From assembly GCA_016713535.1 (NCBI GenBank), contig JADJOY010000017.1:34436-98435 (forward strand): 64,000 nt of DNA. The letters run 5' to 3'. This document shows, piece by piece, positions 7,827 through 53,035 of the stretch (position 1 is the first letter of the stretch; every line of letters begins with the position of its first letter). Origin of the DNA: Deltaproteobacteria bacterium (lineage in GTDB: Bacteria > JADJOY01). Both the position numbers and the translations under genes were made by a program. Under the pieces are notes generated by a model. The model did not search any database, was not told the DNA's origin, and worked only from the letters and a program-made list of their open reading frames with translations.

Positions 7827-7857
7827 TTTTTGCGGGGGTATTTTCAATCCCCCCGCG
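7827..7857 (+). terminator. GC hairpin GCGGGGG-N10-CCCCCCGC immediately after the response regulator stop; possible terminator
   Basis: 7-bp G/C stem; the T-run precedes rather than follows the stem, so it is not a classic intrinsic terminator. Confidence 0.3.
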
Positions 7858-8078
7858 CTCGTTTCCTCGGGGTCTTCGTCAAGACCCCGCCCCGGCCGGA
7901 GTGAATCCGGCCGGGGGCCCACCCCGAAGGCCACCGCGAATGCGGGGCGCGCCGCTGGCGCGGGCCGATCGAGTCTCCGGTCGTCGCCAACTTCGTGAAG
8001 CCGCGCGGGTCCCACCCCCGAGGCACTCGCTTCGCTCGTGCAGTCCCGCCGAGGCTGGGAATTTTCCACCGGGGTCGT

Positions 8079-8175
8079 TCACGGGAAGCCGCGTGGGCGC
8101 GGCGACGGGGATGGAACCCCGTCGCTACGAAGGGCTCTCTCGTAGCGCGGGGCGGGGATCCGTCCCCCCCGAGGC
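8079..8175. repeat. REP-like two-hairpin intergenic repeat, copy 1
   Basis: GGAAGCCGCGTG...GGCGACGGGG-ATGGAA-CCCCGTCGC-TACG...GCGGGGCGGGGATCCGTCCCCCCC; lies between convergent genes. Confidence 0.6.
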
Positions 8176-8308
8176 GCCTGCGTCGCGAGGCTCCCGATTC
8201 CTGTGTTTCCGCACCCGGTATGGAGGGCCCGCCTCCGGCGGGCCGCGATGCTTCGCGGCCGTGACGGCTTCAGGTCCGCGGCGCGCGACCGGCAGGGATC
8301 TTCACAAC

Positions 8309-8376
8309 GCGCCATTGAAAAGCATCACAAACCGCCATTCAAAATCATCACTTCACGCCAGTGAAAATGGTTGCAA
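8309..8376. repeat. AT-rich triple direct repeat (CGCCAtTgAAAAgCATCAC at about 22-nt period) in the convergent region 3' of dapB
   Basis: cgccattgaaaagcatcacaaac / cgccattcaaaatcatcacttca / cgccagtgaaaatggttgcaaca; local GC content is far below the surrounding ~70%. Confidence 0.5.
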
Positions 8377-8445
8377 CACGCTTTCAGATCATCGCGACAA
8401 TGCAATGAAACCGGGCCGATATGGCCCTTCCTGGCCCCGCGAAGC

Positions 8446-9252
8446 TCAGCGCTTGAGGCCCAACACGTCGGCCATGTCGTAGAGGCCGGCGCCCTGAGCC
8501 CACAGCCACCGCGCGGCCCGCACCGCGCCGCCCGCGAAGACTGCGCGGTCGCTGGCACGGTGGACGATCTCGATCGCCTCGCCGATTCCGCCGAAGAGCA
8601 CGTGGTGCTCGCCCACGTTGTCGCCGGCGCGCACCGCGTGCACGCCGATCTCGCGGCGGGTGCGCTCGCCCACCATCCCGTTGCGCCCGTGCACGGCGTC
8701 GCCCTGCGCGTCGCGCCCGAGAGCGGCCGCGACCACCTCGAGGAGCTTCGCCGCGGTGCCGCTCGGCGAGTCCTTCTTGAGGCGGTGGTGGGTCTCGATG
8801 ATCTCGACGTCGTAGTCGTCGCCGAGGACGCGGGCCGCCTCGGCGGCCAGCGCGAACATCAGGTTCACGCCCACGCTCATGTTGGGCGAGAGCACGATCG
8901 GGATCTGGCGAGCGGCGTCCGCCACCGCGGCGCGCTGCTCGGCGGAGAGGCCGGTGGTGCCGATCACCATCGGTGCGCCCCGGCGAGCGCACACCTCGAG
9001 GTGGCCCATCGTGGCCGACGGCGCGGTGAAGTCGACGACCACCGCGCGAGTCGAGAGCAGCGCGTCGAGCTCGTCGCCGATGTGCACGCCGCCGTTCGAC
9101 GAGCCCGCGCCGAGCGCCGCGTCGGTGCCGAGCGCCGGGTGACCGGGCCGCTCGGTGGCGCCCGCCAGGGTGGTGGCCGGGTCGGCGGCCACCGCGCGGA
9201 CCAGCGTGCGGCCCATGCGACCGGCCGCACCGGTGACGATCACCGGGATCAT
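8446..9252 (-). CDS. dapB: 4-hydroxy-tetrahydrodipicolinate reductase
   Basis: MIPVIVTGAAGRMGR N-terminus and DapB core; true ATG at 9252, while the ORF track starts further upstream, overlapping dapA. Confidence 0.9.
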   Translation of the reverse strand: MIPVIVTGAAGRMGRTLVRAVAADPATTLAGATERPGHPALGTDAALGAGSSNGGVHIGDELDALLSTRAVVVDFTAPSATMGHLEVCARRGAPMVIGTTGLSAEQRAAVADAARQIPIVLSPNMSVGVNLMFALAAEAARVLGDDYDVEIIETHHRLKKDSPSGTAAKLLEVVAAALGRDAQGDAVHGRNGMVGERTRREIGVHAVRAGDNVGEHHVLFGGIGEAIEIVHRASDRAVFAGGAVRAARWLWAQGAGLYDMADVLGLKR

Positions 9253-9263
9253 GGCCGCTCCGT

Positions 9264-10139
9264 TCACGGTAAACCGGCCGCGCGCAGCGCTTCCACGAGC
9301 TTGTCGCGGTTCGCGGCGAGCATCGGCGCGAGCGGCAGCCGCACCTCGTCGCTCGGGATCCGGCCCATGAGGGCGAGGGCCGTCTTCACCGGAGTGGGGT
9401 TGGTCTCGATGAAGAGCGCGCGCAGCAGCGGACCGATCCTGTAGTGCACCTCGCGCGCCCGCGCGAGGTCGCCGGCGAGCGCCGCGTCCGAGATCGCCGT
9501 CATCTCGCCCGGCAGCACGTTCGACGAGGCGCTGATCACGCCGCACCCGCCCACCGCGATGATCGGCAGCGTCAGGTTGTCGTCGCCGGACAGCACGTCG
9601 AACCCGGGCCCGCAGCGCTCGATGATCTCCGAGACCTGGCCGAGGTTCCCCGACGCCTCCTTCACGCCCACGATCCCCTTCACCTGGGCCAGGCGCGCCA
9701 TGGTCGCGGGCTCGATGTTGACGGCCGTGCGGCCCTGGATGTTGTAGACGACGATCGGCAGGTCGACGGCCTTCGCCACCGCCTCGAAGTGCCGGAAGAT
9801 CCCTTCCTGGGTGGGCTTGTTGTAGTAGGGCGTGATCATCAGCGCGCCGTCGGCGCCCGCCTCCTTGGCGTGGCGGGTGAGGCGGATCGCCTCGGCGGTG
9901 CTGTTCGAGCCGGTGCCCGCGAGCACCGGCACGCGGCGGCGCACCGTCTCGATGGTGAGCGAGATGACCCGCGCGTGCTCCTCGTGGCTGAGCGTCGCGG
10001 ACTCGCCGGTGGTGCCGCAGGGTACGAAGCCCTGCACACCGTCCGCGATGAGCCGCTCGATCAGGTCGCCGAGCGCCTTCTCGTCGACGCTGCCGTTTCG
10101 GAAAGGAGTGACGGTCGCGACGAAATTGCCCTTGAACAT
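9264..10139 (-). CDS. dapA: 4-hydroxy-tetrahydrodipicolinate synthase
   Basis: MFKGNFVATVTPF...GTTGES...YNKP motifs; start ATG 10139. Confidence 0.9.
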   Translation of the reverse strand: MFKGNFVATVTPFRNGSVDEKALGDLIERLIADGVQGFVPCGTTGESATLSHEEHARVISLTIETVRRRVPVLAGTGSNSTAEAIRLTRHAKEAGADGALMITPYYNKPTQEGIFRHFEAVAKAVDLPIVVYNIQGRTAVNIEPATMARLAQVKGIVGVKEASGNLGQVSEIIERCGPGFDVLSGDDNLTLPIIAVGGCGVISASSNVLPGEMTAISDAALAGDLARAREVHYRIGPLLRALFIETNPTPVKTALALMGRIPSDEVRLPLAPMLAANRDKLVEALRAAGLP

Positions 10140-10242
10140 CGTCTTCCCCCTGCTTCGATCCGCGCGGCGTCGCGCGGCGGGATCGTCCCCGCTCGCGCCG
10201 CCGTCCGGTGCGACGCCGCCTCGCACGGGCGAGGCGCCCTGC

Positions 10243-11067
10243 TCAGACCACGAGCTCGCCGCTGAACACCTCGGCTCCCGGTCCGGTCATGAACACCGAG
10301 CTAGTACCGCCATCCCACTCGAGCACCAGATCGCCACCCGGCAGGCTCACCGTCACCGGCGACGCCGCCATGCCGAGGCGGATCGCCACCGCTGCCACCG
10401 CGCACGCGCCGGAGCCGCACGCGAGCGTCTCGCCGGCGCCGCGCTCCCACACCCGCATCCGCACGTGGTGGCGGTCGAGGAGCTCGACGAACTCCACGTT
10501 GGTGCGCCTGGGGAAGAACGGGTGGTTCTCGATCACCGGTCCGAGCGTGTGGACCGGCGCCGTCGCCACCGACTCGACGAACTGCACCGCGTGCGGGTTG
10601 CCCATCGAGACACAGCTGATGGAGACCGTGACGCCGCCGGCGGTGAACGGCCGGTCGACGACCTCGCCGTCGGCGTCGACCGGCACCCGGCGGGCGTCCC
10701 AGATCGGCGGCCCCATGTCGACGCGCACCGCGTCGCCCACGAAGGCCGGCGTGACCACGCCGGAGAGCGTCTCGACGCGCAGCGACGGACCCGCGGCGCG
10801 CCCGCGGCTTCTGAGGTAGAGCGCCAGGCAACGGATACCGTTGCCGCACATCTCCACCTCGGATCCGTCCTGGTTGTAGATGATCATCCTGGCGTCGGCC
10901 GTCGTGGAAGGCGCCGCCACCAGGATCTGGTCGCAGCCAAGGCCGAAGCGGCGGTCGCCGATCTTGCGCGCCAGCTCCGGGGTGACGGCGACCGGATGCT
11001 CGAAGCCGTCGAGAACGACGAAGTCGTTGCCGAGGCCGTGCATCTTGACGAACGGGAGGGTGGTCAC
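10243..11067 (-). CDS. dapF: diaminopimelate epimerase
   Basis: FVKMHGLGNDFVV ... catalytic Cys motifs (CGNG, GSGAC). Confidence 0.9.
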   Translation of the reverse strand: MTTLPFVKMHGLGNDFVVLDGFEHPVAVTPELARKIGDRRFGLGCDQILVAAPSTTADARMIIYNQDGSEVEMCGNGIRCLALYLRSRGRAAGPSLRVETLSGVVTPAFVGDAVRVDMGPPIWDARRVPVDADGEVVDRPFTAGGVTVSISCVSMGNPHAVQFVESVATAPVHTLGPVIENHPFFPRRTNVEFVELLDRHHVRMRVWERGAGETLACGSGACAVAAVAIRLGMAASPVTVSLPGGDLVLEWDGGTSSVFMTGPGAEVFSGELVV

Positions 11068-11089
11068 GACCGCTGCTCCGGCGAAAGGC

Positions 11090-12334
11090 TCACACGACCT
11101 CGCCGCGCACGAGATCGTCGAGGGTCTCGCGCGGACGCACGACGCGCCAGGTGGTGCCGTCCACCATGACCTCGGGCGGACGCGGCCGGGTGTTGTAGTT
11201 CGACGCCATCACGAAACCGTACGCTCCCGCGCTCATCACCGCCAGCAGCTCGCCGCGGCCCACGTCCGGAACCGGGCGGTCCTTGGCGAGGAAGTCGCCG
11301 CTCTCGCAGATCGGACCGACCACGTCCGCGGGGCGCGCGTCCACGTCGTCGCGCTGCTTGACCGCGTGGATCTCCTGGTAGGCGCCGTAGAGCGACGGCC
11401 GGATCAGGTCGTTCATCCCTGCGTCGACGATCACGAAGCGCTTGGCCTCGGTCTCCTTGCGGAAGAGCACCCGGGTGAGCATCACGCCCGCGTTGCCGAC
11501 CAGCGATCGGCCCGGCTCGAAGAGCAGCTCGACGCCGAGGTGACCGACCACGCTCAGGACCTCGCGCGCGTAGTCCGCGGGGGTGGGCGGAACCTCGTTC
11601 TTGTAGGTGATGCCGAGCCCGCCGCCGAGGTCGAGGTGGCGGATCGTGTGGCCGTCGGCGCGGAGCTGCTCGAGGAGCTCGCCGACCTTCTGGAACGCGT
11701 CGCGAAACGGCGTGGTGCTGGTGAGCTGCGAGCCGATGTGGGCGTCGAGCCCGCGAACCTCGATGCCGGGCAGAGCGCCGGCGCGCTGGTAGACCTCGCG
11801 GGCGCGCGCGATCGCGATGCCGAACTTGCTGGTCTTGAGCCCGGTCGAGATGTAGGGGTGGGTCTGCGGGTCGACGTCCGGATTGACGCGCACCGAGATC
11901 GGCGCGCGGACTCCCTTCCCGGCGGCGATCTCGCTCAGACGCTCGAGCTCTTCCTCGCTCTCGACGTTGAACATCAAGATGCCCGCGTCGAGGGCCTGGT
12001 TGATCTCGGCGTCGGTCTTGCCGACGCCCGAGAACACCACGTCGCCGGCCTTGCCGCCGGCGCGCAGGACGCGCTCGAGCTCACCGCCCGAGACCACGTC
12101 GAAGGCGCTGCCGAGCGAGCGAAAGAGGCCGAGCACGGCGAGGCTCGAGTTGGCCTTGACCGAGTAGCAGATGCGGTGAGGTACGCCCTGGAAAGCGTCG
12201 TACCAGCCGCGGAAGAAGCTGGTGAGCGCGCCCTGGCTGTAGACGTAGACGGGAGTCCCGACCTCGGACGCGATGGTCTCGAGTGGCACGCCCTCGGCGT
12301 GGAGCTCGCCGTTGGTGAACGGGAAGAAGTCCAT
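11090..12334 (-). CDS. lysA: diaminopimelate decarboxylase
   Basis: PLP fold III decarboxylase motifs (YSVKAN, GGGLGI, CESGD); start ATG 12334 (MDFFPFTNG). Confidence 0.9.
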   Translation of the reverse strand: MDFFPFTNGELHAEGVPLETIASEVGTPVYVYSQGALTSFFRGWYDAFQGVPHRICYSVKANSSLAVLGLFRSLGSAFDVVSGGELERVLRAGGKAGDVVFSGVGKTDAEINQALDAGILMFNVESEEELERLSEIAAGKGVRAPISVRVNPDVDPQTHPYISTGLKTSKFGIAIARAREVYQRAGALPGIEVRGLDAHIGSQLTSTTPFRDAFQKVGELLEQLRADGHTIRHLDLGGGLGITYKNEVPPTPADYAREVLSVVGHLGVELLFEPGRSLVGNAGVMLTRVLFRKETEAKRFVIVDAGMNDLIRPSLYGAYQEIHAVKQRDDVDARPADVVGPICESGDFLAKDRPVPDVGRGELLAVMSAGAYGFVMASNYNTRPRPPEVMVDGTTWRVVRPRETLDDLVRGEVV

Positions 12335-12454
12335 GGATGCTGATCTTCTCGTGGAAAACGCGGGAAACGCCCGGTGCAAAGACGCGAAGTGTGATGACGC
12401 GCCGGGGCTAAGTCAACCGAGACGCGCGTCGCCGCGACGCGTGGCACTGCGGGC

Positions 12455-12502
12455 GGGGACAGGCCCCGCCCCTACGTTGCCTTGGGCGTTGGAACCGTAG
12501 GG
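12455..12502. other. 12-bp-stem hairpin CCCGCCCCTACG-N20-CGTAGGGGCGGG between the sulfotransferase 3' end and the lysA 5' region
   Basis: Seen directly; no U-tract follows on either strand. Confidence 0.4.
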
Positions 12503-12508
12503 GCGGGC

Positions 12509-13351
12509 TCAGCCCTCGTACACCCAGCGGCGCGCGACGGCGAGTAGCGCGCGCTGGAACGCGCTCCACTCCATCGGCTTGCCGAGGCGAGCCGGATCGG
12601 GGCGCAGGCTCGCGGCCACCGACGACTTGGTCTCCTCGTTGCCGTTGATGTCGTGGGAGGCGCGGCTCTCCCCCTCGAAGGGGTCGTGGAACGGCACGCC
12701 GAGCCGCTCGCCGAGCTCGCGCACCGTCGACTCCGGTCGCGACACGAGGTCCTCGTAGCGGACCCTGCGGTAGTGGGGGCGCGGCCGAAGAGACGCTCGC
12801 GCGAGCAGGTTGGTGCGCAGGTACTTGCCCACGATCGCGTCGAGGAAGCCGTGCTTCTTGCGGCGCATCCGCGACGCCACGTGTCCCTCGGGCGAGCGCA
12901 CCAGGTGGATCACGTAGACGTCCTGTGGATAGGCCCGCACCAGCGGCAGGAGGCGCCACACCGACTTCGAGTTGTCGAGGACGACTTCGGCGCCGGTCAC
13001 GCTCTCGATCGCCTCGAAGAGCTCGCGGTTGGCCGCGCCGAACGGGTTCTTGCCGCGGCTCGAGAGCCGCCCACTGAGCGCGCGCACCCACTCCAGACCG
13101 CGTTCCGACGAGACCCGCGAGATCGGCACCATGTCGAGCTCGGTGGTGCGCGCGATGCGCCAGAACACCGGACCCCACACCGGGCACTCGAGCGCGTGCA
13201 GCCCACAGCTACAGCGGCGACCGGTGGGATGCCAGTAGCGATCGAGGTACTGCAGCTCGCCGGCCGAGAAGATCCGCGGGTTCTGGTTGAGGATGCGCGT
13301 GAGCAGCGTCGAGCCGGTGTGCGTGCACGCGACGACGTAGGCGAGTTTCAT
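12509..13351 (-). CDS. sulfotransferase family protein (Stf0-like, P-loop THTGSTLL)
   Basis: 280-aa ORF with N-terminal PAPS-binding-like motif ACTHTGSTLLTRIL and RxxS motif. Confidence 0.7.
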   Translation of the reverse strand: MKLAYVVACTHTGSTLLTRILNQNPRIFSAGELQYLDRYWHPTGRRCSCGLHALECPVWGPVFWRIARTTELDMVPISRVSSERGLEWVRALSGRLSSRGKNPFGAANRELFEAIESVTGAEVVLDNSKSVWRLLPLVRAYPQDVYVIHLVRSPEGHVASRMRRKKHGFLDAIVGKYLRTNLLARASLRPRPHYRRVRYEDLVSRPESTVRELGERLGVPFHDPFEGESRASHDINGNEETKSSVAASLRPDPARLGKPMEWSAFQRALLAVARRWVYEG

Positions 13352-13483
13352 GGTGGTGTCGAGGCATCCATCGCCGTCAGCGCGCCGCGCGCGGCAGGCC
13401 AGCCGTTACACGCGAATGTACCCGACGTTCAACGTGACGCGGAGAATGTGCGGAAACGCTCGTCGGATGACCTTCGAGGTTGC

Positions 13484-13497
13484 GGCGCCGAAGTTGC
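13484..13497 (+). promoter_or_regulatory. sigma-54 (RpoN) type promoter GGCGC-N5-TTGC about 55 nt upstream of the DUF4398-OmpA-CsbD operon
   Basis: ttgcGGCGCcgaagTTGCact; invariant GG-N10-GC spacing; correct orientation. Confidence 0.5.
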
Positions 13498-13551
13498 ACT
13501 GCCCACCGTTGCGCGTTCGAACCTCCCAGCGCGCATTCCGGAGAACAGCTC

Positions 13552-13902
13552 ATGTTGCAGACACGCCTCATGGCGGTCGTCCTGCTCACCTCGGTGTTCG
13601 GCTGCGCAGCCGCGCGGCCATCGGGCGAGCAGATGAATCAGGCCATCTCGGCCATCCACGACGCGGAGCAGGCCGACGCCGTATCGATGGCACCCGTACC
13701 GATGCGGACGGCGCGCGAGGCCTACGCGAAAGCGGAAGAAGCCGTACGCCAGCAGGAGGAGCTCGAGGCCTCGCGGCTCGCCGACCAGGCGACGGTCGAC
13801 GCCAAGCTCGCCAGTGCCACCGCCCGTGCGACGCGCGCCGAGCGGAGCCTGGATGAAATGCGCCGCAGCCAGGACGCGCTGCGCCAGGAAGGGAGTCGCT
13901 GA
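13552..13902 (+). CDS. DUF4398-like lipoprotein (typical partner of OmpA-family proteins)
   Basis: GGAGA RBS; lipoprotein signal MLQTRLMAVVLLTSVFGC; coiled-coil A/E-rich body; stop 4 nt before the next gene. Confidence 0.65.
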   Translation: MLQTRLMAVVLLTSVFGCAAARPSGEQMNQAISAIHDAEQADAVSMAPVPMRTAREAYAKAEEAVRQQEELEASRLADQATVDAKLASATARATRAERSLDEMRRSQDALRQEGSR

Positions 13903-13905
13903 ACC

Positions 13906-14976
13906 ATGAAGACCACTCGATGCACCTTTCCGAATTCGCGCACTCCGCGCGCCGCGCGAGTCGTCCGCGGTCTCGTTCTCACGGTGGGCGCGGCGGTCGC
14001 GCTCGCGGGCTGCGGCCCGAAGCACAACCCGGCCCTCGACTCGCTGCGCGCCGACGTGGTGCACGCCAAGGCCGATCCGAACCTGGTGCGGCGCGCCCCG
14101 GCGGCCCTCGACGACACCGTGAAGGCGCTCGACCGCGCCGAGACCGCCGAGCGCCGCGGCGCCGACCCTGTCGACAAGCAACACACGATCTACCTCGCGC
14201 GTCGTCGGCTCGAGATCGCGCAGGCGCAGTCCGCGGAAAAGGCCGCGGAAGAGGAGATCGCGAAGCGCGGCACGCAGCGCGACACGGACGTCGCGAATGC
14301 GCGTGCGCGCGGCGCCGACCAGCGCGCGGCGAGCGCCGAGGGCGAGCTGCGGGCGACCCAGCGCTCGCTCGACCAGCAATCGGGCGAGGTGCGCGCCGGT
14401 GCGGCGGCCAACGCCGCGCTCACCGATCGCGCCCACGACGCCGAGGACAGCGCCGCGACCGCGCGCCTGAACCTGAAGGAATCGCAGCAGACCGTCGCGC
14501 AGCAGAGCGCCGACGCACGGGTGGCGGATCGCCAGCGCGCCGCCCTCGAGCTCGACCTCGCCCGGCTGCGCCACGAGCTGAACGCGCGGGAGACCGAGCG
14601 CGGGCTGCTCTTCACGTTCGGCAACGACGTGCTCTTCGACGTCGGCCGCTCCGACATCAAGCTCGGCGCACGCGAGCGGCTCGCTCGTCTGTGCGAGTTC
14701 CTCAACGCCTACCCGGACCGGTTCGTCCAGGTCGACGGCCACACCGACAGCACCGGCGTCATGGCGTCCAACCTGACGCTCTCCCGGGCCCGCGCCGACG
14801 CGGTTCGCGGCCTCATGGTCCACGAAGGGATCGCGCCCGACCACGTCGTCTCGCAGGGCTTCGGCTCGAGCTCGCCGGTGGCGTCGAACGACTCCAGCGC
14901 GGGGCGCCAGCAGAACCGCCGGGTCGAGATCGTGCTGCTCAACGCGAGTCGCAGCTCGGCGGACGCGAGCCGGTAA
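13906..14976 (+). CDS. OmpA-family lipoprotein (long coiled-coil N-terminal region plus C-terminal OmpA peptidoglycan-binding domain)
   Basis: Lipobox LAGC; C-terminal TDSTG...NRRVEIVLL OmpA_C motifs. Confidence 0.85.
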   Translation: MKTTRCTFPNSRTPRAARVVRGLVLTVGAAVALAGCGPKHNPALDSLRADVVHAKADPNLVRRAPAALDDTVKALDRAETAERRGADPVDKQHTIYLARRRLEIAQAQSAEKAAEEEIAKRGTQRDTDVANARARGADQRAASAEGELRATQRSLDQQSGEVRAGAAANAALTDRAHDAEDSAATARLNLKESQQTVAQQSADARVADRQRAALELDLARLRHELNARETERGLLFTFGNDVLFDVGRSDIKLGARERLARLCEFLNAYPDRFVQVDGHTDSTGVMASNLTLSRARADAVRGLMVHEGIAPDHVVSQGFGSSSPVASNDSSAGRQQNRRVEIVLLNASRSSADASR

Positions 14977-15041
14977 AGCCTCACCAGCGAGCGCAGACCC
15001 GGACACCGACCAACTTCGACGAAAACAAGAGGAGAGAGACC

Positions 15042-15236
15042 ATGAACCAGGACCAGATCAAGGGCACGTGGGACCAGCTCAAGGGCAAGGCCAAGCGCAT
15101 CTGGGGCGAGCTCACCGACGACGACTTCATCAAGGCCGAAGGGTCGGCGGACAAGCTCTACGGCGTCATCGAGAAGCGCTTCGGCGACAAGAAGGAAGCG
15201 ATCAAGGACCGGATCGACAAGCTCACCGTGAGCTGA
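15042..15236 (+). CDS. CsbD-family general stress protein
   Basis: MNQDQIKGTWDQLKGKAKRIWGELTDDDF... is the canonical CsbD sequence; GAGGAG RBS. Confidence 0.8.
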   Translation: MNQDQIKGTWDQLKGKAKRIWGELTDDDFIKAEGSADKLYGVIEKRFGDKKEAIKDRIDKLTVS

Positions 15237-15329
15237 CGCAGCGCGCGCCCGGGGCGTCGCCAGTGGCGGTTCTCCGGGGCTGCGCGGCCCCGTCGTCTCA
15301 CCCCATTCCAACCAGCAAGGACCAGCTCA

Positions 15330-16415
15330 ATGAAGAACGCATGGAAACGCAGCATCGTCGCAGCGGGCCTCGCCGGCCTCCTGCTGGCGGACGTCGTATC
15401 GGCGAAGACCGCGCCGTCCGACTCCTGGATCACCACCAAGGTGAAGATGCAGCTCCTCACCGCGGAAGACGTGAGCGGCACCGACGTCAACGTGGACACT
15501 CGCGACGGGCTCGTGACCCTCCAGGGACCGGTCAGCACCGCAGCGGAGAAGGCGAGGACGGTCAAGCTGGCCCGCGGCATCGAAGGGGTCCGCGACGTCC
15601 GCGACCTCCTCGAGATCGTGCCGCAGAGCAAGGCCTCCGTGATCGAGGCCAAGGACGACGTGATCCGCGACAGGCTCTCCAAGGACCTGAACGACGCCGC
15701 GCGGCTCCAGGACAGCGCCATCGCCATCCAGTCCGTCACCAACGGCACCGTGGTTCTCGGCGGCAAGGCCAAGACGCTCGGCGATCACGCGGAAGCGCTC
15801 AGGCTCGCGCGTCGGACGCCCGGCGTCCGCAAGGTCGTGAGCCAGATCGTGAGCCCCGACACGCTCGGCGACGAGGACCTGTGGTTCCCGGAGGTGAAGG
15901 CGGAGAAGGTCGCCGAGGCCGAGGCGAAGGATGCCCAGGTCGCGGCGAAGGGAGCGAGCGGCCAGGTGTCCGATAGCTGGATCACCACCAAGGCCAAGCT
16001 CGCCCTGTGGACCTCGCCTGACATCACCTCGGACGAGATCAACGTCGACACGCGGGACGGCGTCGTGACGCTGTTCGGCACCGTCACGCCGGACGCGGTC
16101 CGCGAGGTCGCGGTCCAGAAGGTCCGCGCCGTCGACGGCGTCAAGGACGTGAAGAACCAGCTCCAGGTGGTCTCGGTCACGACGGAGAAGGCCGTCGAGC
16201 ACGCGGACGACGCCATCAAGAGCGCCGTGACCTCCCGCCTCGCCGAGCGCGGGGATCTGAACGCGGCGAAGATCGAGGTGTCGGTGGCGAAGGGCGTCGT
16301 CCAGCTCAAGGGCACCGTCGCCAGCCAGGAGCAACGACTGACGGCGTTGTCGCAGGCGCGGATGGTGGCCGGCGTGCGCGCGGTGATCGACGAGCTGCAC
16401 ATCCAGATGAAGTGA
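15330..16415 (+). CDS. OsmY-like periplasmic protein with four BON domains
   Basis: Signal peptide; repeated SDSWITTKVK...VDTRDG.VTL.G.V units. Confidence 0.85.
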   Translation: MKNAWKRSIVAAGLAGLLLADVVSAKTAPSDSWITTKVKMQLLTAEDVSGTDVNVDTRDGLVTLQGPVSTAAEKARTVKLARGIEGVRDVRDLLEIVPQSKASVIEAKDDVIRDRLSKDLNDAARLQDSAIAIQSVTNGTVVLGGKAKTLGDHAEALRLARRTPGVRKVVSQIVSPDTLGDEDLWFPEVKAEKVAEAEAKDAQVAAKGASGQVSDSWITTKAKLALWTSPDITSDEINVDTRDGVVTLFGTVTPDAVREVAVQKVRAVDGVKDVKNQLQVVSVTTEKAVEHADDAIKSAVTSRLAERGDLNAAKIEVSVAKGVVQLKGTVASQEQRLTALSQARMVAGVRAVIDELHIQMK

Positions 16416-16496
16416 GCGATCGGGACTGCCCGCGATTCGCGAGCGGCCCGTCTTGCGTTCCGACCCCAGTGCCCGTGAGGAATTCGAGCTAGACCG

Positions 16497-16585
16497 CGCA
16501 TGGAAGCCGCGTGAAGCCGGCGACGGGGGATGGAACCCCCGTCGCTACGGGGGCCGCCCCCGGGGCCTCCCCCGCGAGGCCTCGC
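16497..16585. repeat. REP-like repeat, copy 2
   Basis: GGAAGCCGCGTG...GGCGACGGGGG-ATGGAA-CCCCCGTCGC-TACG followed by a different GGGGG-CCG-CCCCC hairpin; lies between convergent genes. Confidence 0.6.
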
Positions 16586-17917
<1,332 letters not shown>

Positions 17918-18153
17918 TGCATCCTCGACCCTCGAGGATCGGGGCGGTCTCGGACGGCCGCCGGCCTATGGGACCGACTCGATGTGCACCCCGCGACGAT
18001 CGAGCCGATGGAGGGTAGCACCGATGGAATTCCCGGGCGGATGCGGTGGGGACGATCGGCCGCGCGGAGCGATACCCGATCGTCGCGGCGACGTGGCTCG
18101 AACGAAGGGAAGGGCGCGCCGCTAACGGCTTCTGCTTCGGCTCGGCGAGGCGG

Positions 18154-18492
18154 TCACTTCGCCGCAGGGAGTGCGTGGTGGATCGCGAGCGTGTCGGGAT
18201 CGCTCGCGTGGATCGGCTCGTCAGGCGCTTGCCCCTCGAGCCTCGGAGCCGGCCCACTCGGGAGGGGCCTGATCGTCCACTCGCCGGCCTCGCGTTCGGC
18301 TGCGGTGGTTCGCCGTGGCGCGAGCCACCAGGTCAGCCCGGCCCCGATGAGGATCCCCACACCGACCAGGCCGACGCCATACAGGACGTCGGTGGAGACG
18401 GGACGACGAGTCTCGAGGCCGAGCCCGGTGAGCATCGCCTGACGGCTCGGGAGCTGCGCCCACAGGCTCGATGCGTTTCCGTGGACGTCCAT
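18154..18492 (-). CDS. hypothetical single-pass membrane protein
   Basis: 112-aa ORF with one TM segment (VLYGVGLVGVGILIGAGLTWWLA); sits in the stress gene cluster. Confidence 0.45.
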   Translation of the reverse strand: MDVHGNASSLWAQLPSRQAMLTGLGLETRRPVSTDVLYGVGLVGVGILIGAGLTWWLAPRRTTAAEREAGEWTIRPLPSGPAPRLEGQAPDEPIHASDPDTLAIHHALPAAK

Positions 18493-18562
18493 GGTCGAGA
18501 TCCTCGCTGGTGTGGATTGGCGTGGGTTTCAGTCGCGGTCCGAGGCCTGTGCGGCATGCGCG

Positions 18563-18993
18563 TCAACGCGGTGCGGGTGCGCTGGCGCCGCGGTCGTTGG
18601 TGAGCAGCCGGCCGAGGGCCTCGCCGGCGACCTGCCGCAGGCCGATGCCGATCGCGAGGCTCACCAAGCGCTTGGGTAGACCGCCACCGAGCACGTAGCC
18701 GATCCCCGCGGCGGTCAAGATCGTCGTGTAGCGGTGCCGCTCCAGGCGAGCGCGTGCGAGCGCCGCGACCAGCTCGATCGCCTCGCTGGTGTGCTGGAGC
18801 AGCAGCTTGGCGTCCTCTCGGACCCGCTCGGATCGCTCGTGGATTCCGTCGGGGACCGCGGCCTCGCGGGGGTCGTTCCGGGAAACCGGCTGCGCCGGAG
18901 CGCTCGCCCCTGGTGGTGTGGCGCTCGCGTCCTCCCGCTCGCCCGCGGAGACGGCGGCTCGCGACTGCACGGTGCCTTCTTCCTGTCTCGCCA
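18563..18993 (-). CDS. hypothetical protein with C-terminal hydrophobic segment
   Basis: Start ATG 18993 with GAGGA RBS (MARQEEGTV...); the ORF track extends upstream. Confidence 0.45.
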
Positions 18994-19096
18994 TGACGCG
19001 TGGTCCTCGCGCAAAGGGCTGGCTGAGCGGCCACGAGGCGAACCGCATTCGTGGCGCGGGGGTGCAGGTCGGCGGTGCCGATGCGGGGGCCGTCAT

Positions 19097-19315
19097 TCAC
19101 AGCCTCGAGACGAGTCGGCCCACGAGGAAACCCGCGAGGGTCGCGCCCGCCAGGGTGAGCAGCGGATGCGCCCGGGCCAGCTCCGCGAGCGCGCGGTCGG
19201 TCGTCACGAGCCCGTCGCGCACGGAATCCGCCCGCTCGGTCAGTGCGGAGATTTCTCGTTCGAGGCGGTGCGAGTGATCGCCGAGGGCCTGTGCCGTCGC
19301 TTGCAAGCTCATCAT
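19097..19315 (-). CDS. DUF883 (ElaB/YqjD-like) membrane-anchored stress protein
   Basis: 72-aa coiled-coil plus C-terminal anchor LAGATLAGFLVGRL; ATGA overlap with the upstream gene. Confidence 0.6.
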   Translation of the reverse strand: MMSLQATAQALGDHSHRLEREISALTERADSVRDGLVTTDRALAELARAHPLLTLAGATLAGFLVGRLVSRL

Positions 19316-19551
19316 CCGATCCTGATCCGTTCCGGCGCTCCCGTGCGGAGCCCCATGTACAGGCCGATGGCGAACGCGCCCGCCAGCCAGGGAAGCGGAT
19401 GCTCGCCGAGGTGTGTCTCGAAGCTCACCTGCTTGCGGAGCGCTCGGCCCAGGTCACCCATGGCCCGCTCCAGGGCCGCGCCGTCCCGGGCCGTTCGAGC
19501 GGCCAGCGCGCGGCGGGTCACGGCACCTGTGGGGCTCACCTCGGGCGCCAT
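19312..19551 (-). CDS. YqjK-like small membrane protein
   Basis: MAPEVSP...HPLPWLAGAFAIGLYMGL; start ATG overlaps the upstream stop as TGATG. Confidence 0.45.
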   Translation of the reverse strand: MAPEVSPTGAVTRRALAARTARDGAALERAMGDLGRALRKQVSFETHLGEHPLPWLAGAFAIGLYMGLRTGAPERIRIG

Positions 19552-19892
19552 CAACGCCCCGCGCCCGTGGGCGCCGTCGAGGCTCGCGCCGCGGCGACGA
19601 GCGCCAGCCCCGCGGCGAGGTGGAGCGCGCCCACCAGCGCGAGCGCCAGCGGCCACGACCACATCGGGCCCAGCCAGGCCAGCAGCGCGCCGACGACGCA
19701 GCACCAGCCGAGCGCGGTCACCACACCGCCCGCGACGGCGAACGACCCGCCGCGAGTGAGATCTCCCCACGTCTCCGCGGCCTGGAGCGCCAGCAGGTCG
19801 ATCCGGTCGACGACCAGTCGCTGGCCGGCGCCGTAGGCTTGCTCGATCGCGTCACTGACGGACGGTGTGCTCGTTCGCCGAATCGGGTCCAT
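19551..19892 (-). CDS. YqjE-like / putative holin-X (superfamily III) membrane protein
   Basis: MDPIRR...LALQAAETWGDLTRGGSFAVAGGVVTALGWCCVVGALLAWL; two-TM pattern. Confidence 0.55.
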   Translation of the reverse strand: MDPIRRTSTPSVSDAIEQAYGAGQRLVVDRIDLLALQAAETWGDLTRGGSFAVAGGVVTALGWCCVVGALLAWLGPMWSWPLALALVGALHLAAGLALVAAARASTAPTGAGR

Positions 19893-20004
19893 GGTCGCCG
19901 AACGATGCAATCCCCGCACCGCCGGGGCCGCGCGGTCCGGCCGTGCGTGATCCACGCCGTAGCCGGCGCATCCGGCGGGAAGGTCGTTCAGGCTCGGCGG
20001 ACCT

Positions 20005-20023
20005 CGTGCACCTGAGGTGCACG
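20005..20023. promoter_or_regulatory. perfect 8-3-8 palindrome CGTGCACC-TGA-GGTGCACG, candidate operator upstream of the yqjE-like operon
   Basis: Perfect inverted repeat about 115 nt upstream of the start at 19892. Confidence 0.35.
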
Positions 20024-20633
20024 GAAGGTGTAGGCGTTACCAGCGATCCAGCCTGCTTCGGGGTGGCCTTCCTCGTTCCCGCGGGGCCCACTCGCCGGAT
20101 CGCGACCTCGCGCCGGCTGGGAGCGGCTTCGGCGTGGGGCACTGCGCTTGCACTGCACAGCCATCGATCGACGACGATCCAATGGAACGCGCCCGTTCAC
20201 TTCGAGCGGACGCAGGGCCATGCCCGAGGAGAACGAACATGATCACGATCCGACGAGCCGCGCTTCCCGCGACGGCGGCCGTAGGGCTTGCGTCCGTGTG
20301 CGACGGCAACGACGCGACCCACCCGTTCCGCAACTCGTCGGCTTCTACGGCCCGCCGATCAACGACCCCGTGTTCACCACCACGCCGGGCACGCTCGACT
20401 CCAACGACAACGGCGAGCTCTTCGACGACGAGCCGTCGGTCGCGCTCACCGCGCAATCGACCGGCACATCCTCCGACACCGGTGACGAGCTCGATCTCCA
20501 GCTCTTCCTCGAGCCCGGCGTCTTCAACGTGGACTCCAGCGGCACCGGTGATCTGAGCGACGTCCGGACCACCGGCCGAGAGCAGGTCGTGGCGCGAGGT
20601 CCGTTTGCGAATCCCCCGCTTCGAAAGGCGATC

Positions 20634-21332
20634 ATGTCATCACCAGCACCACCTCCCGGCTCTCCCCCGACGCGGGGCGATCCGGCTCCCCGATCACCCC
20701 CCAGGAGGGTCCCGCTCCGGTTGCCCGCGCTGCCCTACGCGGCGGACGCGCTGGAGCCGGTGCTGAGCGGAGAAGCGGTCGATACGCACTACGAGAAGTA
20801 CCAGCGGCGCGATCTGGAGCGGCTCGAGCACTCCCTCGAGGGCTCTCTCCTCGGTGATCAGCCCCTCGACGGCATCGTGCGGCTCGCGACCGGGGAGGTC
20901 TTCGACCACGCCGCGCAGGTGTGGAACCACACCTTTTACTGGAACAGCATGACCCCGCGCGGCGGTGGGCGGCCGCGCCGCGGCCGCATCGCCAAGGCCA
21001 TCGACACCTCGTTCGGTTCCTACGACGAGTTCGCCGAGCGCTTTCAGCAGACCGCGGCCGGCCTCTTCGGCTGCGGCTACGTCTGGCTCTACCGCCCGGA
21101 CGAGACCGACCGCGTCGAGCTCGCGGCGCTGCCCAATGCCGGGAATCCACTCAGCCACGGCGGGGCGCCGATCCTCGTCGCGGACCTGTGGGAGCACGCT
21201 TACTACCTCGATCACCGGGAACAGTCCGCGCGCTACGTCCGCCTCTTCCTCGAGAGGCTCGTCCACTGGGACTTCGCCGAGCAGAATCTGTCCGAGGTCC
21301 GTGGACTGGCCGCGCGCGTCGGTCCGCGCTGA
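20634..21332 (+). CDS. sodB: Fe/Mn superoxide dismutase (Fe-type)
   Basis: LPALPYAADALEP ... AAQVWNHTFYWNSM ... DLWEHAYYLDHR; the metal ligands H, H, D, H are conserved. The ATG at 20634 gives a 30-aa Pro-rich N-terminal extension. An alternative TTG at 20721, 12 nt downstream of AGGAGG, would give a canonical-length protein. Confidence 0.85.
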   Translation: MSSPAPPPGSPPTRGDPAPRSPPRRVPLRLPALPYAADALEPVLSGEAVDTHYEKYQRRDLERLEHSLEGSLLGDQPLDGIVRLATGEVFDHAAQVWNHTFYWNSMTPRGGGRPRRGRIAKAIDTSFGSYDEFAERFQQTAAGLFGCGYVWLYRPDETDRVELAALPNAGNPLSHGGAPILVADLWEHAYYLDHREQSARYVRLFLERLVHWDFAEQNLSEVRGLAARVGPR

Positions 21333-21545
21333 TCCATGCGGTCGACCTCGATCACCGTGGGACCACCCGGCGCCGGAGGCGGACGGCCCTCGGCGCTGGT
21401 TCGAAACGCCTATCTCCAGCGCCGCGCGCGCTGATCGAGGACAGCCATGAGGTTCCGTCGGACTCGTCGGATGATCTCTACCAACTCGTGCCCGACGACA
21501 GGGCTCTGGACACGCAGCGGCCCGTGGAGTGAGGGCGCCGGGCGG

Positions 21546-22157
21546 ATGGTGCGCCGCCTGCTCGCGATCGGGTTGCTCGTCGGTCTGACCGGGGTGCTCG
21601 GTGCGACCCGCTCCGAGGCTGCGGCCGACGAGCCCTCGGCGTCGGAGGTCGTGAGGCGAATGACCGACGACGTCGTCGGGTTGCTCAACGACGGCACGAA
21701 GTCGGCCGCGGAGCGGCGCCGCGGGATCGAGCGGATCGCCGAGGCGAACATCGACTTCGACACGCTCTCGAAGCTGGTGCTGACGCAGTGGTGGTCGCGG
21801 CTCTCGCCGGCCGATCAGCGCGAGTTCGTGGCGCAGTTCCAGCAACATCTCGCTGTGACGTACGGCCGCAACTTCGAGCACTTCCACGACGAGACCGTGG
21901 AGGTGCTGGGAGATCGCGCCGTGTCCGACGGCGACTGGAAGGTGCTGACGCGGATCGTCCGCCCGAGCGCCCAGAGCGTGACGGTGAACTACCGGCTGCG
22001 GAAGATCGGCGAGCAGTGGCGCATCATCGACGTGCTGATCGAGGGCGTGAGCCTGGTGTCGAACTTCCGCTCCCAGTTTCACGCGATCCTGGCCGACGGT
22101 GGCGCACCGCAGCTCCTCCAGGTGCTGCGAGACAAGAACGCGGTTGGGACGAGCTGA
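21546..22157 (+). CDS. MlaC/Ttg2D-family periplasmic phospholipid-binding protein
   Basis: Signal peptide MVRRLLAIGLLVGLTGVLGA; toluene-tolerance Ttg2D-like body. Confidence 0.75.
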   Translation: MVRRLLAIGLLVGLTGVLGATRSEAAADEPSASEVVRRMTDDVVGLLNDGTKSAAERRRGIERIAEANIDFDTLSKLVLTQWWSRLSPADQREFVAQFQQHLAVTYGRNFEHFHDETVEVLGDRAVSDGDWKVLTRIVRPSAQSVTVNYRLRKIGEQWRIIDVLIEGVSLVSNFRSQFHAILADGGAPQLLQVLRDKNAVGTS

Positions 22158-22185
22158 GCCAGAGATCGCATCCGAGGACGTCGTG

Positions 22186-22232
22186 GAGCCTGCGACGGGG
22201 GCTTCGTCGTCGTGCGGGGGGCTCCGTTCCCC
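22186..22232. repeat. degenerate REP-like copy (module A decayed, module B intact)
   Basis: tgCGACGGGGGcttCGTCGtcgTGCGGGGGGCTCCGTTCCCCCGCg. Confidence 0.4.
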
Positions 22233-22439
22233 CGCGAGCGCCTCGACCGGGTGTTGGCCGACCTGCGTTACGGAGCCGTGCGCTCCGGTGCGCGAGCCAG
22301 GAATGGAGTGGGGTCGCGGCCGTACGACGATCCGCTGGCGGCCACGTTCGATCGAGGAGGCTCGCCGGGGATCCCGTGATTCCCTTGGCTTACAGCGGGT
22401 GCTGTCCGCCGAAGCCGCAACCGGGGCGGCTCGGGCGTC

Positions 22440-22453
22440 GGCACCCGGTTTGC
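22440..22453 (+). promoter_or_regulatory. sigma-54 type promoter GGCACccggtTTGC about 60 nt upstream of the second csbD-like gene
   Basis: Exact GGCAC-N5-TTGC spacing. Confidence 0.55.
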
Positions 22454-22514
22454 GGTGCTTCCCAATGGATCGGAGATGCCAATCGCTCCATCGAGCAGAA
22501 GGGGAGGCCGAGTC

Positions 22515-22679
22515 ATGGCCGGCAAGGTCGATCAGGCCAAAGGGCGTGTGAAAGAAGCCGTCGGCGTGCTCACGAACGACAAGAAACTCGAGACCGAGGG
22601 GAAGGTCGATCAGGTCGTCGGGAAGGTGAAGAAAGCCGTGGAGAAGGTCGTCCACGCCATCCAGGAGACGGTCTCCTGA
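22515..22679 (+). CDS. CsbD-family stress protein (second copy)
   Basis: MAGKVDQAKGRVKEAVGVLTNDKKLETEGKVDQVVGKVKKAVEKV; GGGGAGG RBS. Confidence 0.75.
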   Translation: MAGKVDQAKGRVKEAVGVLTNDKKLETEGKVDQVVGKVKKAVEKVVHAIQETVS

Positions 22680-22767
22680 CGCCGCTTGCCCGCGCCGCGA
22701 AGCCTCGGCCCGTGGCGCGGTTGGCCAACGACGAAGCGAACCCGAGCCCGAGGGCCGGGGGCATGCC

Positions 22768-24048
22768 ATGACGGCGGGGCCGAGCATCCGAGCGTACGAG
22801 TCGAGTGCGACGGCGCTCACCGCGGCGAAGCCGATGGGTGAGGGCCGAGTCCCGCTGATCGACGAGTCCATTCTCCGCGAGGTCGTCGAAGCGCTCGCGC
22901 CCCTCGTTCGAGCACCGTGTTCCCAGGCCGAGCGCGCCGCTGCGGATTGGATCGCCAGCCGCTTGCGCAAGGCCGGATGTCACCACGTCGAGCTGGAGGA
23001 CGAGGCCTCGTGGGGGTCGTTCCCGCCCAACCTGATCGCGGCCGGTCTGCTCGGCATCGCTGGCGGGATCGCGGGCCTCGCAGGGCGCGAGCTGCTCGCG
23101 ATCGGTGCGTTGCTGGTCTCGATCGTGGCGGTGGCGGACGAGGTGCAGAACGGCCCCCGTGTGCTCCGCCGGCTGTTGCGGCGCAAGCGGCGCACGGTCA
23201 ACGTCGTCGCACGTGTCGGCGATCCGGATGCGCCGCGCACCATCGTGCTGATGGCTCACCACGACGCCGCGAAGACGGGCCACCTCTTCGATCAGACGCT
23301 GCTCAAGAAGATCTACGCGCGCTGGCCCGCGTTCGTGCACGCGCGCAGGAGTGCACCGCCGGAGTGGTGGATCGGAGTCATCGCGCCCGCGGTCGCGATC
23401 CTCGGCGTGGTCACGGGTCAGGGCTGGTTGATCTCACTCGGTATCGCCGGGATCGTGGCTGGCGTCGCGTTGCTCGCCGACATCGAACGAAGCGAGACGG
23501 TGCCGGGCGCCAACGACAATCTCTCCGGCGTGGCCGCGCTGGTCGCGATCGCGGAGGAGCTCAGCTCCCGTCCCGTACCCGGGCTCGACGTCTGGATCGT
23601 GTCGACCGGCGCCGAGGAGACGCTCCAGGACGGCATCCGTGGGTTCATGGCGCGACATGGAGAGGAGCTCCAGCGCCGTCGCGCGGTCACGCTCAACTTC
23701 GAGACCGTCGGCTCGCCTCATCTCGGCTTGCTCGAGGGAGAAGGTCCTCTGTGGATGGAGGACTATCGTGGGCCGTGGCTCCGCGACACGATCGCGTCGA
23801 TCGCGAAGGGTCGCGGCATCGAGCTCGAGCGCGGGCTTCGGGCGCGCTCCTCGACCGACAGCGTGATCACCAGCCGTGCGGGCCTGCCGTCGGCCTGCCT
23901 CGTTTCGCTGACCGACTGGCGCGCCCTGGCCAACTATCACCTGCGGACCGACGTTCCGGAGAATCTCGACTACCGGACGATCGCGAACGCGTCGCGGTTG
24001 GGCGTGGCGGTGGCGCAGTCGTTCGGCCGCGGAAGCCTGGCCGGCTGA
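22768..24048 (+). CDS. M28-family zinc peptidase-like membrane protein
   Basis: PGANDNLSGVAALVAIAEEL M28 signature; several TM segments inserted. Confidence 0.75.
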   Translation: MTAGPSIRAYESSATALTAAKPMGEGRVPLIDESILREVVEALAPLVRAPCSQAERAAADWIASRLRKAGCHHVELEDEASWGSFPPNLIAAGLLGIAGGIAGLAGRELLAIGALLVSIVAVADEVQNGPRVLRRLLRRKRRTVNVVARVGDPDAPRTIVLMAHHDAAKTGHLFDQTLLKKIYARWPAFVHARRSAPPEWWIGVIAPAVAILGVVTGQGWLISLGIAGIVAGVALLADIERSETVPGANDNLSGVAALVAIAEELSSRPVPGLDVWIVSTGAEETLQDGIRGFMARHGEELQRRRAVTLNFETVGSPHLGLLEGEGPLWMEDYRGPWLRDTIASIAKGRGIELERGLRARSSTDSVITSRAGLPSACLVSLTDWRALANYHLRTDVPENLDYRTIANASRLGVAVAQSFGRGSLAG

Positions 24049-24107
24049 AGCGCGCGCCTCCTCGATCGCACCTCGGCGCGGCTGTGAATCTTCCCATCCG
24101 GGTCGCT

Positions 24108-24200
24108 CACGGAAGCCGCGTGGCCCCGGCGACGGGGGATGGAACCCCCGCCGCTACGATGGTTCTCGCAGCGCGGGGGGATCCGTCCCCCGCGCCGGTC
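24108..24200. repeat. REP-like repeat, copy 3
   Basis: GGAAGCCGCGTG...GGCGACGGGGG-ATGGAA-CCCCCGCCGC-TACG...CGCGGGGGG-ATCCGT-CCCCCGCG; lies between convergent genes. Confidence 0.6.
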
Positions 24201-24213
24201 ACCCGGATACGGG

Positions 24214-31577: not shown

Positions 31578-31588
31578 CGAGGACACCC

Positions 31589-41149: not shown

Positions 41150-41500
41150 CGGCCCACGGCGCGCAGCGCGACGCCACGAGCGAAGCGAGCGCCTCGGGGG
41201 TGGCCGCGAACAGTAATCGACGGACCGTCGATGCAACTCCTGCGCGTATCGCCGGCGCGGCAGGAGCCGCGCCCTCCGACGGGGAGGGGGGCTGGAGCCC
41301 GCTCGAAGCGCAGAGCCACTCGGCCGGCTCGCGCCACGCACCGACCCGTCACACGGCGCGTCGCAGCGCGACGCCACGAGCGAAGCGAGTGCCTCGGGGG
41401 TGGCCGCGAACAGTAATCGACGGACCGTCGATGCAACTCCCGCGCGTATCGCCGGCGCGGCAGGAGCCGCGCCCTCCGACGGGGAGGGGGGGGCTGGAAC
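41150..41500. repeat. tandem direct duplication (2 x ~140 nt, about 98% identical, 200-nt period) of a hairpin-rich element between the FN3 lipoprotein gene and metH
   Basis: Unit 1 at 41161-41296 and unit 2 at 41361-41498 differ at two substitutions plus a G-run length. Each unit carries three inverted repeats (ATCGACGG-A-CCGTCGAT; CTCCTGCGCG...CGCGGCAGGAG; CCCTCC-GACG-GGGAGG). Confidence 0.7.
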
Positions 41501-41534
41501 CCGCGTGCGCTACGCGCACGCTCCCCGCGGAAAC

Positions 41535-52850: not shown

Positions 52851-53035
52851 GGATTCACTCCTTGCATGGGACGGCGAGGTCGATCGCGCGGCTGCGTCGG
52901 GGCGAGCCTCGGGGTCCCGAGAAATCGGGCGGGGATGAACCCCGCCCCTACGTGCAACGACGGCGGCCCGGGGTAGGGGCGGGGCCCGTCCCCGCCCGCA
53001 GCGTTCGGTCCGGCGACGTCGCGGATTCGATCATC

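Follow-up and report, generated by a model that had tools for sequence, protein, structure and literature searches.

The window analysed here is a 64-kb stretch (70.2% G+C) of contig JADJOY010000017.1, from the metagenome-assembled genome (MAG) of an uncultured Deltaproteobacteria bacterium. At four intergenic loci, 1.9-8.4 kb apart, it carries short G/C-rich palindromes tagged with the tetranucleotide GTAG, and these are in all likelihood repetitive extragenic palindromic (REP) sequences, arranged in doublets resembling those of bacterial interspersed mosaic elements (BIMEs) and of the REP doublets forming hairpins known as REPINs. An initial annotation, made from the letters alone, had reported the four loci, which share a single orientation, and had set the three fuller copies between the 3′ ends of convergent genes, with which gene assignment by Pfam agrees in all three cases. 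The loci, with neighbours as assigned by Pfam, are as follows.

8046-8186, + strand: copy 1, between the gene for a LuxR-type response regulator (+, ends 7826) and dapB (-, stop 8446), convergent.
16464-16549, + strand: copy 2, between the gene for a BON protein (+, ends 16415) and that for a sigma-54 response regulator (-, stop 16586), convergent.
22192-22243, + strand: copy 4, decayed, between the MlaC (+) and M28 (+) genes, which run in the same direction.
24074-24204, + strand: copy 3, between the gene for an M28 peptidase (+, ends 24048) and a hypothetical gene (-, stop 24214), convergent.

Chance is excluded as the origin of this recurrence. A 31-nt core of the first hairpin finds two matches at three or fewer mismatches where 0.00 are expected, copy 1 departing from that core by a paired 1-nt deletion, one per arm. 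The 12-mer box GGAAGCCGCGTG is exact in copies 1, 2 and 3, and within the 64 kb both GCGACGGGGG and GGGG.TCCGT.?CCCC are confined to these elements. Similarity between copies 1 and 3 covers ~125 nt (8047-8171 and 24074-24194) and starts ~40 nt further 5′ than the element was originally taken to extend. Copy 2 has only 16495-16549 in common with copy 3 and is without the second hairpin. Copy 4 aligns with copy 1 in three parts, the spacer, the second hairpin and the right flank, and has kept the GCGACGGGGG arm, and for these reasons is read as a doublet with an internal deletion; its second hairpin is intact, as had been recognized from the start.

On the + strand CTACG comes after hairpin 1 and CGTAGCG before hairpin 2, the second hairpin being a diverged inverted copy of the first. 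On the - strand hairpin 1 reads GTAGCG-ACGGGG(G)-TTCCAT-(C)CCCCGT-CG and on the + strand hairpin 2 reads GTAGCG-CGGGGGG-ATCCGT-CCCCCG-CG, each following the plan of GTAGCG, a G-rich arm, a 6-nt loop, a C-rich arm and CG. The inverted unit, with the loop TTCCAT (ATGGAA, and further on CTAC, on the + strand), is termed REP-L, and the direct unit, with the loop ATCCGT, REP-R. Six units from the four loci align as one family.

8102..8128, - strand: REP-L of copy 1, GTAG-CGACGGGG-TTCCAT-CCCCGTCG; on the + strand its stem is 8102-8110/8117-8125, the loop ATGGAA 8111-8116 and CTAC 8125-8128.
8142..8171, + strand: REP-R of copy 1, GTAG (8142-8145), then CGCGGGGCGGGG-ATCCGT-CCCCCCCG.
16520..16548, - strand: REP-L singlet of copy 2, a perfect 10-bp stem, with GCGACGGGGG at 16520-16529, loop ATGGAA at 16530-16535, CCCCCGTCGC at 16536-16545 and CTAC at 16545-16548.
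22192..22243, + strand: decayed doublet of copy 4, with the GCGACGGGGG 5′ arm at 22192-22201 and the loop, 3′ arm and CTAC of REP-L deleted.
22215-22234, + strand: REP-R of copy 4, CGGGGGG-CTCCGT-TCCCCCG, intact, its GTAG mutated to GTCG.
24129..24157, - strand: REP-L of copy 3, stem 24129-24138/24145-24154, loop 24139-24144, CTAC 24154-24157.
24168..24194, + strand: REP-R of copy 3, GCAG (a degenerate GTAG), then CGCGGGGGG-ATCCGT-CCCCCGCG.

A profile built from the six units recovers them, as by construction it must, and any other match in the window is no better than E=2.3. REP-L stems are of 9-10 bp and REP-R stems of 7-8 bp, rich in G/C in the former, and all enclose 6-nt loops; an exact GTAG accompanies REP-L of copies 1-3 and REP-R of copy 1. 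Hairpin 1 had been described as perfect throughout, which is true of copy 2 (10 bp), while the stem of copy 1 is of 9 bp and that of copy 3 has one A.C mismatch on the + strand that reads as G.U on the - strand. The second G/C hairpin is present in copies 1 and 3 as described, though imperfect in copy 1 (GCGGGGCGGGG/CCCCCCCG). Beyond the singlet of copy 2 there are unrelated G/C hairpins as far as the stop codon of the sigma-54 regulator at 16586.

Since both of their hairpins are GTAG-tagged and the two palindromes are inverted relative to each other, copies 1 and 3 are REP doublets, with GTAG ends pointing inward across a spacer of 13 nt in copy 1 and 10 nt in copy 3; copy 2 is a singlet. 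An inverted pair of GTAG-tagged palindromes is the defining REP/BIME layout (PMC8266576, PMC3733652), and in the nomenclature of Di Nocera et al. (PMC3733652) the doublets of the window are tail-to-tail heterodimers. In folding predictions the minimum-energy structure of both is a single long imperfect hairpin of ~90 nt in which hairpin 1 is paired with hairpin 2, spanning 8091-8184 in copy 1; in copy 3 the inverted repeat spans 24120 to 24203, and the minimum-energy fold has -84.4 kcal/mol for the + strand (z -4.4) and -90.3 for the - strand (z -6.2). On these models the doublet is able to fold either as two hairpins or as one hairpin of ~90 nt.

Comparison with close relatives reveals presence/absence polymorphism at the sites of copies 2 and 3. 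A relative with 82% nucleotide identity (90% amino acid identity for M28), contig L104, runs colinear with the window as far as 24033, resumes at 24205 with no break at the junction, and has convergent genes that overlap there. What it lacks is the following segment.

24034..24204, + strand: 171 nt missing from the orthologous site, holding all of copy 3 and, in the window, contributing the final four codons and the stop to the M28 gene.

Distant M28 homologues end near the insertion junction, and so only the non-conserved tail of the protein is affected. The site of copy 2 is empty in two other relatives, L011 and L012 (about 89% nucleotide identity in the aligned flanks; BON protein 93% and 91% identical in amino acids), and measures 133 nt in the window versus 53 in L011. 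Since these two orthologous sites are empty in relatives at 82-90% nucleotide identity, the copies arose by insertion. The relative without copy 3 also lacks the MlaC gene together with the decayed copy 4 (21339-22264; L104 133-212), its superoxide dismutase (SOD) gene being almost directly before M28; this is a gene-sized indel beside a REP remnant.

A scan of JGI metagenomes with a pattern consisting of the hairpin-1 core plus CTAC yielded 118 matches on about 88 contigs, mostly from samples Ga0180433-38, and as these contigs are of 55-60% G+C they belong to different organisms. The matched units sit amid many other perfect palindromes, all of which start GTAGCG. Type 1 among them, GTAGCGTCGGGGTTCCATCCCCGACG, has the head, loop and tail of REP-L, and type 2, GTAGCGTCGGGTCTCCGTGCCCGACG, those of REP-R (the loop of copy 4 being CTCCGT). 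One contig, L084, encodes a 152-amino-acid protein with the HUH (DHLHIL) and YILNNPVRAGLV (YxxNPVRAGLV) motifs that scores 97 bits against NCBIfam NF047646, ‘REP-associated tyrosine transposase’ (RAYT; cutoff 80), and E=3e-11 against PF01797, and its relatives are annotated RayT. Upstream of the gene are a type-1 inverted REP, CTAC, a 17-nt spacer, GTAG and a type-2 REP, and downstream are three type-1 units. The REP/BIME-type reading first put forward from the window alone is thus upheld both by the inverted GTAG-tagged palindromes there and by the same doublet beside this RAYT gene. As the same palindrome types and doublet flank that gene, it is also plausible that something binds the element specifically, the best candidate being a RAYT/TnpAREP that would recognize GTAG plus hairpin.

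On the contigs of ~57% GC, type-1 REPs also occur in head-to-tail tandem arrays (L034 6909-7190, L084 2001-2125, L089 10418-10477 and L067/L097), with 7 copies at a 43-44-nt period, 3 at 51 nt and 2-3 at 37 nt, the inter-repeat segments being identical. Their identity as clustered regularly interspaced short palindromic repeats (CRISPR) is ruled out by these identical ‘spacers’, and they are tandem REP clusters. A sequence of ~90 nt (GAGCGGGTGGCGCGGAGGGAGGGCCTCCCGCCGCCCAGACTGCCAAGGAGGACGGTGGGAGTCCGGAGCG...) is found beside REPs on L039, L043, L047 (about 2310-2410), L051, L066, L075, L079, L083 and L093; on the four of these contigs compared with Rfam (L039, L047, L066 and L083) it has no match at the gathering threshold.

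For hairpins so regularly placed at gene ends a function at the level of RNA merits consideration, namely that the copies are paralogous 3′-end modules, serving as mRNA stabilizers or bidirectional terminators, that are under selection, non-mobile and served by no dedicated transposase. The placement of all copies 3′ of genes, three of them between convergent genes, would suit such modules, as would the high stability of the G/C hairpins and the conversion of both + strand A.C mismatches in copy 3 to G.U when the - strand is read. Termination in high-GC bacteria often dispenses with U-tracts, which also counts in their favour. Yet a scan of 7500-24500 for a hairpin with a T-run gave 5 sites versus 5.3 expected, none of them in an element on either strand, and as no T-run follows any element hairpin the canonical sense of the bidirectional terminator module at first proposed is unsupported. 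Conservation is as strong in the loops and the unpaired GTAG/CTAC as in the stems, which argues for common descent and not convergence; relatives whose orthologous sites are empty have genes that cope without the element; copy 1 is >220 nt from either stop codon; and the same units flank the RAYT gene on L084. A selected RNA module is accordingly an improbable explanation of the family.

Matches to established RNAs, which would have spoken for a different identity, were looked for and are absent from the elements: with Rfam 15 the window has no gathering-level match, only E 0.36-0.86 being reached around copy 1, and ARAGORN (tRNA/tmRNA) reports nothing at the elements. A tRNA-fragment origin was set aside, the sole ARAGORN match being elsewhere, within argG. 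That match is a 93-nt tRNA-Arg(TCG) at 52494-52586, and since it is inside the argininosuccinate synthase coding sequence (51633-52850, - strand, GC3 0.96) it is almost certainly a false positive. A CRISPR array was likewise rejected, with copies kilobases apart (1.9-8.4 kb) and a CRISPR-DR29 match that is sub-threshold at E=0.86. Near copy 1, at 7823-7856, the TAG stop of the response-regulator gene is within a GTAG, after which come TTTTT and the hairpin GCGGGGG-N10-CCCCCCGC. Any likeness to a REP here is probably fortuitous, the structure being more likely a 3′ hairpin that belongs to the gene itself.

Compensatory change, suggested at the outset as a check on the stems, is seen at one stem pair. 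Among 47 distinct related sequences the pattern fixed most of the stem and left one pair free on both sides, and this pair is UA in 28, GC in 6, AU in 3, CG in 1 and UG in 2, and unpaired in 7, a degree of covariation reached in 0 of 500 shuffles. The window copies have A:T at this pair versus T:A in the metagenome majority, and in 46-47 of the 47 the two 5′ bases that the pattern left unconstrained pair with the partners that it fixed. The sequences thereby lend limited but consistent support to selection on the hairpin. Wobble counts, 7 on the CTAC strand versus 3 on the GTAG strand, are indecisive as to which strand is functional.

The palindromes do not travel alone. To their 5′ side the three fuller copies have a module of ~45 nt, termed module A, that carries the GGAAGCCGCGTG box and whose nhmmer matches are only at these copies. 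Abutting copy 1 is a member of a second module, family C (~60 nt), and elsewhere in the window there is a second GTAG-tagged palindrome family, family B, with the form GTAG-GGGCGGGG-N5-CCCCGCCC and the same inward doublet layout.

8046..8095, + strand: module A of copy 1, box GGAAGCCGCGTG at 8084-8095, aligning with copies 2 and 3.
16464..16513, + strand: module A of copy 2, more diverged, box at 16502-16513.
24074..24122, + strand: module A of copy 3, box at 24111-24122.
8003..8058, - strand: family C module abutting copy 1, core CACGAGCGAAGCGAGTGCCTCGGGGGTGG, E=6e-13.
41153-41215 and 41353-41414, + strand: pair of family C modules inside a 200-nt tandem duplication in the cluster 41153..41514.
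12450..12510, strand not assigned: family B doublet with a decayed right unit, GGGCGGGG-ACAGG-CCCCGCCC-CTACG ... CGTAGGGGCGGGC.
52926..52997, strand not assigned: family B doublet with GTAG inside, GGGCGGGG-ATGAA-CCCCGCCC-CTAC, a 21-nt spacer, then GTAG-GGGCGGGG-CCCGT-CCCCGCCC.

Both family B doublets are between genes of the same direction, the first in the sulfotransferase/lysA interval, where it abuts or overlaps the stop codon of the gene at 12509, and the second between argF (stop 53036) and argG (start 52850). With the four loci of the main family, three convergent and one unidirectional, placement is intergenic throughout. Family C has four instances, all at E<=6e-13, the fourth being on a 70% GC metagenome contig, L096 (153-214), beside a REP-L copy that has the exact copy-2 core. 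The 41153-41514 units each end in a degenerate REP-L-like remnant, the second of which, CGACGGGGAGGGGGGGGCTGGAACCCGCGTGCGCTACG, ends at 41514 and is weak (E=3.8). The duplication itself (41153-41561; 130 nt at 98% identity) is in a spacer of ~485 nt upstream of metH, each of its units has two perfect 8-bp hairpins (ATCGACGG/CCGTCGAT and GGCGCGGC/GCCGCGCC), and in Rfam it has no match even at E<=1. At 31029-32413, the window has an encapsulated-ferritin-like gene (PF22277) followed by an encapsulin shell gene (PF04454), constituting an encapsulin nanocompartment operon.

Module A was also considered as a decayed third REP, and alignments with REP-L and REP-R in both orientations are no better than those of shuffles. 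Clusters of REPs that bring flanking DNA with them have been described, as have REPs linked to unrelated stem-loops (PMC3733652); module A and family C likewise accompany the REPs as pieces of a mosaic. Conservation of module A and the hairpins as a unit in one orientation is also what would be seen if module A were the body of a multi-copy small RNA (sRNA) gene, with the hairpins its terminator. No sigma-70-like promoter was found in 7500-24500, however, the sequence 5′ of module A is not conserved among copies, copy 3 overlaps the end of the M28 coding sequence, and in Rfam there are chance matches only (E about 0.4-0.9), with none at the gathering threshold; an sRNA gene family is extremely improbable.

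The extent of the repeated unit raises a different possibility, that of a miniature inverted-repeat transposable element (MITE) of ~125-170 nt, comprising module A and the palindromes and moved by a conventional DDE transposase, for which the hairpins would be incidental. The unit does reach ~45 nt 5′ of the palindromes, the 171-nt segment absent from L104 exceeds a REP doublet, and there is a possible GGAA / GGAT repeat at the two junctions. That junction repeat is nevertheless only 3-4 nt and ambiguous, the outer ends have no terminal inverted repeats, the inverted repeat being internal (REP-L versus REP-R), and no transposase gene of any family is present among the ~50 window open reading frames (ORFs) scanned with Pfam. 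REP clusters, moreover, are known to take flanking DNA and unrelated stem-loops with them (PMC3733652). A MITE is very unlikely to be what was inserted.

Several observations tell against GTAG-tagged REPs in BIME/REPIN-like doublets. REP-R has a degenerate GTAG in two copies, GCAG in copy 3 and GTCG in copy 4; degenerate forms such as GYAG have been described for GTAG REPs (PMC3733652). The repeated unit is larger than a REP doublet, and module A is without counterpart among the metagenome REPs. The covariation comes from the single free pair, the remainder of the stem having been fixed by the search pattern. There is no RAYT gene in the window, judged by Pfam on about 50 ORFs and by a six-frame regular-expression search for HUH and Y motifs, and tblastn of the window with the L084 RAYT gives nothing at E<=10. 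A box-anchored pattern (box plus loop) has only 10 matches in 185,579 species genomes, all of them attributed to chance since they are in unrelated taxa and none has the hairpin; the GGAAGCCGCGTG box is evidently lineage-specific. Even with these set against it, the assignment to GTAG-tagged REPs in such doublets is held with considerable confidence. The class of repeat is already well known, and the elements of the window are probably a further, mobile, member of it.

For the source genome as a whole both the REP copy number and the cognate transposase are things that we infer, and a RAYT/TnpAREP would be encoded there beyond the window. An HUH/Y1 enzyme of this type would bind, along with GTAG, the hairpin in its folded single-stranded form; by cleavage and rejoining close by it would place copies of REPs and of the DNA next to them in new intergenic sites. 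TnpAREP of Escherichia coli performs cleavage and rejoining in vitro (PMC3333891, PMC3479197, PMC8266576). Copies would persist at sites just past the 3′ ends of genes, insertion there being harmless, and as a secondary matter the G/C hairpins, co-transcribed at mRNA 3′ ends, may block 3′-exonucleases or pause transcription.

A bolder version, for which the prospects are modest, would have as the replicating unit the whole ~125-170-nt mosaic of module A, type-1 inverted REP, type-2 REP and sometimes family C, copied as a block and rewriting gene 3′ ends, with a REPtron that has either spread horizontally or been deeply conserved. Rewriting of gene ends is conceivable because the copy 3 segment provides the M28 stop codon. 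In this version the type-1/type-2 pair, common near base for base to the 70% GC genome and to organisms of ~57% GC, would imply that spread or conservation, contrary to the usual strictly vertical and lineage-specific pairing of REP and RAYT.

REPs are well described in Gammaproteobacteria and poorly catalogued in uncultured high-GC Deltaproteobacteria and Myxococcota. Recognition of the elements averts their annotation as novel RNAs or terminators, and their identity as REPs accounts for assembly breaks of this lineage at such sites and for differences in intergenic length among close relatives, and leads to the prediction that another part of the genome encodes a RAYT. Small questions, involving no new principle, are posed by the extra 5′ module and by a REP pair that is nearly identical in organisms of very different base composition.

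Among known systems the closest counterparts are the GTAG-tagged REPs classified by Di Nocera, De Gregorio and Rocco in 2013, which include GTAG-1 of Pseudomonas, GTAG-3 of enterobacteria and SMAG of Stenotrophomonas (PMC3733652). They too are palindromes of 20-40 nt with an unpaired GTAG at one end; they occur as pairs in opposite orientation that fold apart or as one large stem-loop, with heterodimers whose loops differ; they lie near the 3′ ends of convergent or unidirectional ORFs with occasional overlap of a stop codon; and several families may be present per genome, as with the main family and family B here. In contrast to them, the window unit (GTAGCG, G-run, TTCCAT/ATCCGT loop) is without a match in the supplements to that classification (24 families), the host is a 70% GC deltaproteobacterial MAG, and the doublets have an extra 5′ module of ~45 nt.

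With the REPs and BIMEs of E. coli and the TnpAREP REPtron (PMC3333891, PMC3479197, PMC8266576) there is a common arrangement of REP and inverted REP separated by a short linker, with GTAG immediately 5′ of the palindrome. The HUH/Y1 gene flanked by its REPs is paralleled on L084, where the palindrome types are the same, and the mosaic association with other short motifs is a feature of E. coli BIMEs also. No REPtron is seen in the 64 kb, and unlike the bulged REPs of E. coli the stems are short and perfect or nearly so, resembling the ‘perfect palindrome’ REPs of group 3. A hairpin with a short guide or cleavage motif is found as well in the subterminal hairpins of IS200/IS605 and their miniature derivatives, where it is recognized as single-stranded DNA by the Y1 HUH transposase; the hairpins of the window, however, have no transposase or TnpB gene between them and are adjacent instead of being at the ends of a longer element. 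The REPINs of Pseudomonas fluorescens (Bertels and Rainey 2011, PMC3116915) have their GTAG outside (per PMC3733652), whereas in the window doublets it is inside. In both, nevertheless, two inverted REPs give a long hairpin, which for REPINs is the proposed replicating unit, singlets are decayed doublets, and there is presence/absence polymorphism among relatives.

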